64,000 nt of DNA, from the NCBI RefSeq assembly GCF_003334765.1, contig NZ_QOWT01000004.1; one strand, written 5' to 3'. The position numbers and the translations under genes were made by a program. The notes beneath the pieces were generated by a model. It did no database searches, had not been told where the DNA came from, and saw only the letters and a program-made list of their open reading frames with translations. The stretch comes from Escherichia coli (GTDB lineage: Bacteria; Pseudomonadota; Gammaproteobacteria; Enterobacterales; Enterobacteriaceae). Positions 24,534-28,843 of this stretch are shown here, piece by piece. Positions within the stretch are counted from its first letter, which is position 1. Every line of letters begins with the position of its first letter.

Positions 24534-27182
24534 ATGAAACTGAAAAAACTCCCCGGGTTTAGTTTGGGACTTATTGCTCTGGCGGTGGGTAATGCATATG
24601 CAACACAATTGTTGGATGATTATAGTATAATTTCCTATATGACTGATGAAGAATCGCCGATTGAAATCAAAGATAATAATCCGATAAGTAATGGAGAGTA
24701 TCTAACCACTGAAGACGAAAGCCATGCTGTGAAAGTGGATGACGGTGTAACTGGATATATAAATAATGCCAGTGTGATGACTAGTGGTGATGGATCTTAT
24801 GGTATTTCTGTTGATAGTCAAAACAAAGTATTATATATAAGCGATAGCGATATTAAGACCTCTGGAAGCGTATCTGACAAAGAAAATGGAGGGATAACAG
24901 CCAGCGCAGTAGTCAGTGAATTTGGTGGCACCATCTTTATGAATGGTGATAATTCAGTCGAGTCGGGTGGGGCATATTCAGCGGGACTTTTAAGCCAGGT
25001 TAATGATTCTGAAAAGATGGTAAATAACACCCGTCTTGAAACCACAGATAAAACGAACATTGTTACCTCTGGGGAAAATGCAGTAGGTGTTCTTGCATGT
25101 TCAAGTCCTGGAGAGTCTCGAACATGTGTCGATGCTGTAGATGATGAAGTTAGTGATTCTAACAGTTACGAAGTTATTAGCCGTGCTGATTTAAAAATGA
25201 ATGGTGGTTCCATAACAACTAATGGCATTAATAGCTATGGTGCTTATGCTAATGGGAAAAAAGCATATATTAATTTAGATTATGTGGCACTTGAAACTGT
25301 GGCTGATGGAAGTTATGCAGTTGCTATTCGACAAGGTAACATTGATATAAAAAATAGTTCTATTACAACAACAGGCACTAAAGCCCCCATTGCAAAAATA
25401 TACAATGGTGGAGAGTTATTTTTTTCCAATGTCACCGCGGTATCAAAACAAGATAAAGGAATATCAATTGATGCATCAAATATCGATTCTCAAGCCAAAA
25501 TAGCACTATTAAGTGTTGAACTTTCAAGTGCTTTGGATAGTATTGATGTTAACAAAACTACAACGGATGTAAGTATCCTTAATCGAAGTATTATCACACC
25601 TGGTAATAATATTCTGGTTAATAATACTGGAGGTGACTTAAACATAATTTCGTCCGACTCTATTCTAAATGGAGCGACTAAACTCGTCAGCGGCACAACC
25701 ACGCTGAAGCTTTCAGAAAATACAATCTGGAATATGAAAGATGACTCCGTTGTTACCCATCTGACTAATTCAGACAGTATTATCAATCTTTCGTATGATG
25801 ATGGTCAAACATTTACCCAAGGAAAAACATTAACCGTAAAAGGTAATTATGTCGGTAATAATGGTCAGCTTAATATCCGCACCGTATTAGGTGATGATAA
25901 ATCGGCTACGGACAGACTTATTGTTGAGGGTAATACTTCGGGTTCAACTACCGTCTATGTGAAAAATGCTGGAGGAAGCGGCGCGGCCACGCTAAACGGG
26001 ATCGAACTCATAACTGTGAATGGCGATGAATCTCCAGCAGATGCCTTCAGATAAGGTGATGCAAGGATTGCAGCTGGAGCTTTCGAATATCAACTAAAAC
26101 AACAAGGCAAAAACTGGTATTTGACAAGTTATCAGTCAGTGAATGAGGAGGATAACAGCTCAGAGGGAAATTCAGAATCAACAGAAACGCCTACCCCCGT
26201 CCTGCGCCCCGAAGCTGGAAGTTACGTCGCTAACCTGGCAGCTGCTAACACTCTTTTTGTTATGCGTCTGAACGACCGTGCGGGTGAAACGCGCTACATC
26301 GATCCTGTAACTGAACAGGAGCGTTCAAGCCGACTTTGGCTACGTCAAATTGGCGGGCATAATGCCTGGCGTGACAGCAACGGACAGTTGAGAACGACCT
26401 CGCATCGCTACGTCTCGCAGTTAGGGGGCGATCTGTTAACCGGTGGTTTTACCGATAGTGACAGTTGGCGTTTGGGAGTGATGGCTGGTTATGCCCGCGA
26501 CTACAACTTAACTCATTCCAGCGTGTCGGATTATCGTTCGAAAGGGAGTGTCAGAGGCTATAGCGCAGGGCTGTATGCCACCTGGTTTGCCGATGACATC
26601 AGTAAAAAAGGCGCATACATTGACTCCTGGGCGCAATATAGCTGGTTTAAAAACTCGGTGAAAGGGGATGAATTAGCCTATGAATCCTATAGCGCGAAAG
26701 GTGCAACCGTCTCGCTGGAAGCGGGTTACGGTTTTGCCCTGAATAAATCCTTTGGTCTGGAAGCGGCGAAATATACGTGGATCTTCCAGCCACAGGCACA
26801 GGCTATCTGGATGGGCGTCGATCATAATGCGCACACGGAAGCCAATGGCTCACGTATTGAGAATGACGCAAATAACAACATCCAGACCCGACTCGGCTTC
26901 CGCACCTTTATTCGTACTCAGGAGAAAAACAGCGGTCCGCACGGTGACGACTTTGAACCTTTTGTTGAAATGAACTGGATCCATAACAGTAAAGATTTTG
27001 CTGTCTCAATGAACGGTGTGAAAGTCGAACAAGATGGGGCGAGTAATTTGGGGGAAATTAAACTTGGCGTAAATGGCAACCTGAATCCAGCGGCCAGCGT
27101 CTGGGGAATGTGGGCGTGCAGCTGGGTGATAATGGCTACAATGACACCGCAGTGATGGTGGGCCTGAAATATAAGTTCTGAT
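24534..27182 (+). pseudogene. ycgH: Autotransporter ycgH, disrupted: in-frame TAA at about 26052-26054 plus a frameshift near 27105 before the C-terminal ...VGLKYKF
   Basis: ORFs 24534..26054 and 26121..27155 lie in the same frame separated by one stop; the beta-barrel C-terminal signature continues in another frame to a stop near 27180; signal peptide MKLKKLPGFSLGLIALAVGNAYA. Confidence 0.8.
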
Positions 27183-27237
27183 CCCGCCGTTAGCTAAAAA
27201 ACCGCGTCGTATTCATCGACGCGGTACATATGAAATA

Positions 27238-27567
27238 TTATTTTTTGCCGATAGCACGCATGGTGTCATCAATTGCCGTGATCAACAGCATTTGCGGGTC
27301 TTTAGCGCAAACCTGATTCAGTTTTTCTACCACTTTGGCGCTCAGTTCCGGAGATTGCTCAATTTTTAAATCACGGCTGGCAACGCTGGCATTACCCATT
27401 ACCGCAACAATTTCTGCAACCTGTGCGCTGTCAGTTTTTGCCATTTCGTTGGCTTCTGCGCAAGTAATATAGGTTTCTGACGGCAAACCGTTTTTAATAT
27501 TGTAGTCCTGCGCCCAGGTCATTGGTGCGAAAACAAACAGGCCCGCCAGTAAAGCAAATTTTTTCAT
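27238..27567 (-). CDS. ymgD: Periplasmic protein YmgD
   Basis: 111-aa ORF with signal peptide (MKKFALLAGLFVFAPMTWA); synteny. Confidence 0.8.
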   Translation of the reverse strand: MKKFALLAGLFVFAPMTWAQDYNIKNGLPSETYITCAEANEMAKTDSAQVAEIVAVMGNASVASRDLKIEQSPELSAKVVEKLNQVCAKDPQMLLITAIDDTMRAIGKK

Positions 27568-27576
27568 CATCATTCC

Positions 27577-27921
27577 TTATTTCATTTTACCCAGAATTGC
27601 ACCACCCGTACCGCCAATCACGGCACCTTTAATCGCCCCTTCGAGGCCATTGCCGGTCAGAACGCCAGTGACAGCACCAACGGCGGCACCCACTTTTGCA
27701 CCTTTACGCGCATTTTTACCGTCGCGGCCTTTTTCTGTTACTGCACCAACACCAGCGCCAACAGCTGCACCTTTCAGTACGCCATTAACACCATTGCCAG
27801 TAAGTAAACCAACGCCTGCGCCTAGCAATGCACCTTTCGTGGTGCGGTTCATATCCGCCATCGCTGGCGTGGAGCAGAACAATGCTGAGATAAGCCCGAA
27901 GGCAAGTATTTTTTTCTTCAA
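27577..27921 (-). CDS. ymgG: Glycine-zipper protein YmgG
   Basis: 114-aa ORF, signal peptide followed by Gly/Ala/Val-rich repeats. Confidence 0.82.
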
Positions 27922-28397
27922 CTTAGATGTCCGGTATTAAGTAAGTTGCACACACAATAATTTCGTCTTCAATTAAGATCTGCTTAACTAAAGAACGCTC
28001 GCTATTATTCAGATAATTCAAAATGAGCGTGGCTGTGATGATAGGAATTATGTTTTTTACGTGAATGAGAATAATCTTAAATGAGGAATAACTCATTGAT
28101 TGACAATATTTTTATTCAAGAAGTGTCATTGACTGTTAACGCAATGTTGTAAAGGTAAGATAATCTGATTTATCAATATTATTGTGTGATTTTTATGTGA
28201 GCAGAAGATATTCATCAGCAACGATTACATTAGTCATTTTATTTTGCCGACGGCCTCATTGTCGAAAGATAAGCGTACGACAGTATTATCAGAAAAGAGT
28301 GATTTTTTATCCAACTACACTTCAGCGCACTGCGTGTAAAAAATGCCTCTTTCTTATGCGGGATATCATCATTTCATCATGATGTCTTTGGTGAGCG

Positions 28398-28843
28398 GTG
28401 AACACAATACACCTGCGCTGTCTCTTCAGGATGAATCCCCTGGTCTGGTGCCTGCGGGCTGATGTTGCAGCAGAGCTTAGGTCACTTAGACGCTACTATC
28501 ATTTATCCAATGGCATGGAATCGAAATCAGTCGATACCCGCAGTATATATCGTGAACTGGGTGCAACGCTGAGTTACAACATGCGCCTGGGGAACGGTAT
28601 GGAAATGAACCCTGGCTGAAGGCGGCTGTGCGCAAAGAATTTGTCGATGATAACCGGGTGAAGGTGAATAATGACGGTAATTTCGTCAATGATTTGTCGG
28701 GCAGACGTGGAATATACCAGGCAGCTATTAAAGCCTCATTCAGCAGTACGTTTAGCGGACATCTCGGGGTGGGGTATAGCCATGGTGCCGGTGTGGAATC
28801 CCCGTGGAACGCGGTGGCTGGTGTGAACTGGTCGTTCTGACCA
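28398..28843 (+). pseudogene. ycgI: ycgI: remnant of an autotransporter beta-barrel C-terminus, frameshifted
   Basis: Two adjacent short ORFs in different frames (28398..28619, 28628..28840); the second ends with the outer-membrane signature ...AGVNWSF. Confidence 0.65.

Follow-up and report, generated by a model that had tools for sequence, protein, structure and literature searches.

A stretch of 64,000 nucleotides of Escherichia coli DNA (assembly GCF_003334765.1, contig NZ_QOWT01000004.1; hereafter the window) holds, between positions 24534 and 28843, two loci named ycgH and ycgI that look like autotransporter adhesin genes in different stages of decay, and the question that they raise is whether either can still give rise to a functional adhesin. 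Following the results below, the interval almost certainly contains two dead genes for type Va autotransporter adhesins, as carried by the E. coli K-12 lineage, neither of which yields a functional adhesin; a third autotransporter gene (ycgV), some distance away, is unrelated to them and intact. The gene order is pdeG, ymgF, ycgH, ymgD/ymgG/ymgI (on the minus strand), ymgJ, ycgI and minE/minD/minC. Positions 24400-27300 (2901 bases) match K-12 (O16:H48) and related genomes at 100% identity, and on the identical K-12 DNA the Prokaryotic Genome Annotation Pipeline (PGAP) places, at the same coordinates, the label 'autotransporter YcgH; frameshifted; internal stop'. The corresponding label downstream, on ycgI, is 'autotransporter outer membrane beta-barrel domain-containing protein; frameshifted; incomplete; missing N-terminus'.

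Judging from its open reading frames (ORFs), its PGAP label and the domains of its intact homologue, ycgH (24534-27181, plus strand) is a pseudogene of an AIDA-I-type classical autotransporter (i.e. signal peptide, passenger, autochaperone and beta-barrel). The first ORF starts at 24534 (MKLKKLPGFSLGLIALAVGNAYATQ) and stops at a TAA at 26052-26054, exactly the bases near which the initial annotation had put an in-frame stop codon, and a second ORF (26121-27155) codes for most of the autotransporter barrel. The frame that ends in ...VGLKYKF, with its TGA at 27179-27181, is present as well, out of frame with the second ORF. A Sec signal peptide is predicted at 24534-24602 (plus strand; MKLKKLPGFSLGLIALAVGNAYA followed by TQ), which was read by eye from the translation and has a basic n-region, a hydrophobic core and an AxA site, so that the signal peptide and the barrel C-terminus that had been ascribed to ycgH are both found in the sequence.

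The reference for ycgH was the intact 887-aa allele of strain 405 (NZ_CM132947.1), with which the window aligns across the whole region. The two ycgH alleles differ by 64 substitutions and by an in-frame, not inactivating, 15-bp length polymorphism at 24884-24885 (plus strand; AATAACCAAGATGTT in strain 405, absent here and in strain D8), and only two of the differences break the frame. The first is a C to T change at 26052, which puts a premature TAA (26052-26054, plus strand) at codon 507, in the autochaperone domain just upstream of the barrel, where the intact allele has CAA for Gln512. The second is a single T that is missing between 27106 and 27107 (plus strand), where GGGGTAATG of the intact allele has become GGGGAATG; the frameshift that had been suspected near 27105 is therefore real, and the description of ycgH as carrying one nonsense codon and one 1-bp indel is exact relative to strain 405. 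The deletion puts the last 25 codons out of frame, including the terminal ...VGLKYKF strand, whose ...Y-K-F motif (encoded at 27161-27178) is out of frame with the barrel here and in frame in strains 405 and D8. When both lesions are reverted in silico, one ORF of 882 aa results, which is identical to the strain 405 protein at 853 of 887 positions. The same length is found in the naturally intact ycgH of strain D8 (882 aa, also without the 15 bp), so that the expectation of intact alleles in some strains was correct for at least strains 405 and D8. As no single ORF joins signal peptide, passenger and barrel, interrupted as they are by the TAA at 26052 and by the frameshift, ycgH is a pseudogene of the classical autotransporter family and not a functional member of it, and each of its two lesions should be inactivating on its own. 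In fact, for ycgH and ycgI alike the disabling lesions are evident from the comparison with strain 405, which keeps an intact orthologue of each at the corresponding locus.

The domains of intact YcgH indicate what was lost. Pfam places AC_1 (PF18883) at residues 409-525 (E 2.5e-29), Pertactin at 430-535 and Autotransporter (PF03797) at 605-864 (1e-40), and the barrel model TIGR01414 matches residues 434-887 with 372.6 bits (cut-off 16); the K-12 fragment 26121-27155 still scores 252.5 bits against the same model. Among solved structures the AIDA-I translocator 4MEE comes closest (E 5.6e-77, over the C-terminal 450 residues), and the IcsA autochaperone structure 3ML3 is matched too. The NCBIfam scan gave domain-level and partial matches only, the latter over the C-terminal half (MisL, the ECSE_1600 family and AIDA-I), and no equivalog or YcgH-specific model above its curated cut-off. 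With a signal peptide (by eye), a C-terminal barrel domain and an autochaperone or pertactin-like junction before the barrel, intact YcgH belongs with the classical (type Va) autotransporters, among those of the AIDA-I kind. The gene is mosaic in composition, with 34-39% GC in the passenger half and 48-51% GC in the barrel half, and among the codons that differ between K-12 and strain 405 the ratio of nonsynonymous to synonymous changes is 24:15 in the passenger and 5:14 in the barrel.

In type Va autotransporters the barrel is inserted by the beta-barrel assembly machinery (BAM) and the passenger is shown on the cell surface. By analogy with the family, the intact ycgH ancestor would have been exported via Sec, its C-terminal 12-stranded barrel inserted by BAM and its beta-helical passenger displayed with the help of the autochaperone domain. 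The TAA at 26052 would stop translation within that autochaperone domain, leaving a product with signal peptide and passenger but without a translocator, and the missing T at 27106/27107 would separately cost the barrel its last strands together with the C-terminal ...YKF motif.

The history of ycgI is of a different type, since most of the gene is simply absent. Next to minE, strain 405 has an intact gene of 3405 bp that starts after ymgJ, codes for 1134 aa and is named 'adhesin-like autotransporter YpjA/EhaD' by PGAP. The window is colinear with strain 405 up to 28497, which corresponds to 29 bp before the ATG, and colinearity resumes 3090 bp further on, at gene nucleotide 3062. The junction of this 3090-bp deletion thus lies at 28497-28498 (plus strand), and the deletion removed the 29 bp upstream of the ATG together with nucleotides 1-3061 of the ypjA/ehaD-like gene; 1 bp (T) of microhomology is found at the junction. 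According to the alignment with strain 405, what remains (28497-28840, plus strand) are the last 114 codons (codons 1021-1134), which cover the C-terminal barrel strands and of which the last 70 aa match TIGR01414 positions 365-432; the full-length 1134-aa protein matches TIGR01414 and AIDA/Ag43-type repeats. A secondary 1-bp deletion, of a T at 28616-28617 (plus strand; GGAAATTGAAC to GGAAATGAAC), has shifted the frame of the remnant. The initial annotation had described ycgI as a frameshifted fragment ending in ...AGVNWSF, and both the frameshift and these terminal residues hold, the stop codon however ending at 28840 rather than at 28843.

With the 3090-bp deletion a paralogue of ypjA/ehaD lost its ribosome-binding region, start codon, signal peptide and passenger as well as roughly two thirds of its barrel, and the later 1-bp deletion frameshifted what was left. 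That the large deletion came first appears from the fact that the same junction occurs with a 345-bp in-frame remnant, without the frameshift, in four strains (O145 RM12522, 1500, ST3 and 042), as well as from the respective counts (4510 versus 1703 genomes, see below). About 433 genomes have the deleted segment at an identity of 95% or higher, each of them in two copies, and K-12 ypjA (b2647), which lies at another locus, matches 88% of it at 92.6% nucleotide identity. The two copies per genome and the 92.6% identical ypjA elsewhere mark the ycgI ancestor as a paralogue of ypjA, the two not sharing a locus as orthologues would.

How old these lesions are can be read from their frequencies, which were obtained by querying 5426 complete E. 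coli genomes with short sequences specific to each allele and are marginal counts per allele, the TAA and the frameshift of ycgH not being joined per genome. Out of 2239 genomes that hold the 61-mer stretch around the nonsense codon, at least 1494 have the TAA version (exact matches) and 694 have the exact CAA version. At 27106/27107 the frameshifted 40-mer was found in 1572 genomes and the unshifted 41-mer in 1950. Each ycgH lesion is therefore common to some 28-29% of the complete genomes. The 40-mer across the ycgI junction is present in 4510 of the 5426 (83%), and the K-12 frameshift allele of ycgI in 1703. Given such frequencies, the ycgH and ycgI lesions are old lineage markers and not strain-specific events, which contradicts the earlier impression that those in ycgH are recent.

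Which of the two ycgH lesions came first is less clear. It is likely, and held loosely, that the 1-bp deletion preceded the nonsense codon, because strain 98197, with a ycgH allele that is 99.8% K-12-like, has the frameshift together with CAA, and because carriers of the frameshift (1572) outnumber those of the TAA (1494).

Several points weigh against the account given so far. The frameshift-first order draws on one sampled genome and on marginal counts, recombination or reversion could yield the same pattern, and strain 98197 also has a frameshift in a T tract of the passenger-coding part, so that it does not represent a clean intermediate. Furthermore, a residual role for the fragments (i.e. 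for a periplasmic passenger fragment of 506 aa, or for transcripts) is strictly speaking still conceivable, and in chromatin immunoprecipitation a region bound by sigma-S RNA polymerase is assigned to ycgH.

Beyond the K-12 lineage, ycgH has been broken in several other ways. The T7 tract at 25419-25425 (plus strand), which lies in the passenger-coding part and is in frame here, is T8 in SW071619, 98197, MS1679 and E. coli 042 and T9 in 504239, and these variants occur on K-12-like and 405-like allele backgrounds alike. The exact T8 73-mer (a query with a 46-nt unmasked flank beside the T run) is present in 191 of the 3226 genomes that hold the stretch with the tract. In E. coli 042 the T8 frameshift is the only lesion, and the PGAP note there is just 'frameshifted'. 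Strain 504239 combines T9 with an insertion of the insertion sequence (IS) IS2. In Nissle 1917 and in an O170:H18 strain, ycgH has two internal deletions (approximately residues 312-551 and 629-759) plus frameshifts, a B2-type wreck that leaves three small annotated ORFs, one of which is labelled 'porin' in the O170:H18 record; among the compared locus records it occupies L013:3075-4593 (Nissle 1917) and L006:3635-5154. O145 and strain 1500 have replacement alleles, with an N-terminal passenger of 43-47% amino-acid identity, and such alleles lie at L004:3135-5685 and L007:3635-6282.

Altogether, at least five independent lesion sets can be distinguished, being the nonsense codon plus frameshift of the K-12 lineage, the T8/T9 variants, the two B2 deletions, the IS2 insertion and the broken replacement alleles. 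On this comparison of alleles, the ycgH locus decays repeatedly and independently, which is unsurprising among E. coli adhesin genes and fits a rapid turnover of E. coli surface adhesins. The T7 tract looks like a recurrent slippage hot spot, of which some cases could be homopolymer sequencing errors. A bolder view would be that ycgH is inactivated time and again across E. coli, possibly under selection, and that the tract might serve as a slippage-prone on/off switch instead of being a mere hot spot; this is an outside chance.

Whether the remains have since acquired another use has to be considered as well. The ycgI-minE interval or the 5' fragment of ycgH could have been co-opted for a regulatory or small-protein role, which would explain their persistence, and in line with this the ycgI remnant has been retained with an identical junction in the 83% of genomes mentioned above. 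A filamentation screen in UTI89 reports enrichment that extends from minCDE into the ycgI homologue, which according to its authors may just be linkage (PMC6206680), and the sigma-S polymerase region assigned to ycgH would point in the same direction. However, the remnant has gained a frameshift (in the 1703 genomes) as well as substitutions, as neutral DNA would, and that it persists is accounted for by its tight linkage to the min operon, an essential region, and by deletion being slow. None of the data examined points to a function for the ycgI remnant, and the use of ycgH as an integration site (PMC9509612) is consistent with phenotype-free loss. Co-option is for these reasons very unlikely.

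Even less probable, to the point of being hardly credible, is that ycgH is still functional through recoding, i.e. that readthrough of the TAA and a programmed frameshift restore a low level of the full-length autotransporter. It is true that only two lesions separate the gene from an intact ORF and that the remaining sequence is well preserved, but the intact alleles have plain in-frame sequence at both sites, and the frameshift site is without a slippery heptamer. Moreover, the unrelated lesions in other lineages (T8 in 042, internal deletions in Nissle 1917, IS2 in 504239) argue for decay and not for a conserved recoding, and on these three grounds programmed recoding is rejected. The idea that the lesions are artefacts of counting, sequencing or assembly, with ycgH being one intact ORF here, has practically no chance of being right and is ruled out too: one-bp indels are a common type of error and the nearby T7 tract differs among assemblies, but the ORF list and the raw sequence both display the two lesions, the lost T is a lone T between GGGG and AA and not the shortening of a long homopolymer run, and identical alleles recur in some 1500 independent complete genomes, the frameshift that had been feared to be a base-counting error among them. 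As negligible is the proposal that ycgI is the tail of a gene split by an insertion of ymgD-ymgG, with ycgH or other upstream DNA as its head: ycgI does lie downstream of ymgD/ymgG, on the same strand as ycgH and without an N-terminus, and it is indeed the tail of a second gene, but ycgH comes with a complete barrel and a stop codon of its own, ymgD, ymgG, ymgI and ymgJ sit unmoved in strain 405 before the complete 3405-bp gene, and the colinear alignment with that strain rules out the insertion in favour of the 3090-bp deletion.

That two dead autotransporter genes are present is in itself not new, the pseudogene status of ycgH and ycgI being already known from PGAP and from papers. In PMC4447067 ycgH is listed as 'pseudogene - autotransporter', in metabolic engineering pathway genes have been integrated at 'the ycgH pseudogene locus' (PMC9509612), and in the UTI89 study C1357 is described as 'a pseudogene ... 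the homolog of ycgI' (PMC6206680). A search for literature on the evolution of ycgH and ycgI returned only pseudogene lists, metabolic-engineering papers and the one filamentation screen, and within that search no account was found of the exact lesions or of their population frequencies, details of a kind that is routine in comparative work. As both are standard annotated pseudogenes of K-12, the finding is correct but ordinary, with the base-level account of the lesions as a useful by-product. The intact alleles (ycgH from strains 405 and D8, the ycgI ancestor from strain 405) can be cloned in order to learn what role the adhesins have.

Of the neighbouring features, ymgD, ymgG and ymgI (27238-28096, minus strand) are intact ORFs of 111, 114 and 57 aa that lie between both pseudogenes and are part of neither lesion; their annotation is the same whether or not a strain has the intact autotransporter further down. 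A GC-rich, terminator-like hairpin at 27201-27225 (no strand assigned to the feature) lies between the convergent ycgH and ymgD and was called on the minus strand, together with a run of T. Upstream, pdeG (c-di-GMP, i.e. cyclic di-GMP, phosphodiesterase; 22219-23784) is intact in the window, and it is truncated or interrupted by IS1, IS3 or IS2 in several otherwise near-identical genomes, which suggests that IS insertion and decay readily affect the entire neighbourhood of ymgF, pdeG and ycgH. PGAP also annotates a 39-aa 'hypothetical protein' (WP_001131446.1) at 28343-28462 (plus strand), which overlaps the end of ymgJ and ends about 35 bp before the ycgI deletion junction. In strain 405 it directly precedes the intact ypjA-like gene, so that it may represent a promoter or leader region of the gene that was lost and not a true coding sequence. 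A few plasmid records (4-9 places per search, e.g. NZ_CP082081.1 and NZ_CP195449.1) match the 41-mer from the ycgH barrel, the 40-mer across the ycgI junction or the ypjA-like segment, so that related autotransporter barrel sequences occur on plasmids also.

The third autotransporter gene, ycgV, lies 30 kb off (58018-60885, minus strand) and is, as had been stated, intact: its uninterrupted ORF of 955 aa includes a full C-terminal barrel domain, which matches TIGR01414 over residues 513-955 with 359.9 bits. Of the 5426 genomes, 3936 contain 80% or more of the gene. In a 2022 review YcgV and YpjA are grouped with the biofilm-forming autotransporter adhesins (PMC9289746).

Compared with the pseudogenes ycgH and ycgI as annotated in K-12 (RefSeq/PGAP), the locus in the window shows no difference, and what is added to that annotation are the exact lesions, their likely order and their frequencies. 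With the AIDA-I-type type Va autotransporters (AIDA-I, MisL and the IcsA autochaperone) YcgH shares the AC_1, Pertactin-like and barrel domains, whereas its passenger is short (approximately 400 aa) and AT-rich and does not resemble the repeats of AIDA-I. The adhesin of the ECIAI39_1904 family occupies the exact position of ycgH between ymgF and ymgD. Relative to ycgH, such replacement alleles are 99-100% identical in the upstream 200 bp and approximately 87-89% identical in the barrel-coding half, while the N-terminal passenger of the ECIAI39_1904 family has only about 43% amino-acid identity, so that in this allele the passenger has been replaced; the O145 example is itself a pseudogene. Finally, the ancestor of ycgI that survives in strain 405 bears the PGAP name YpjA/EhaD, but in contrast to K-12 ypjA it adjoins minE, where K-12 keeps only the last 114 codons.

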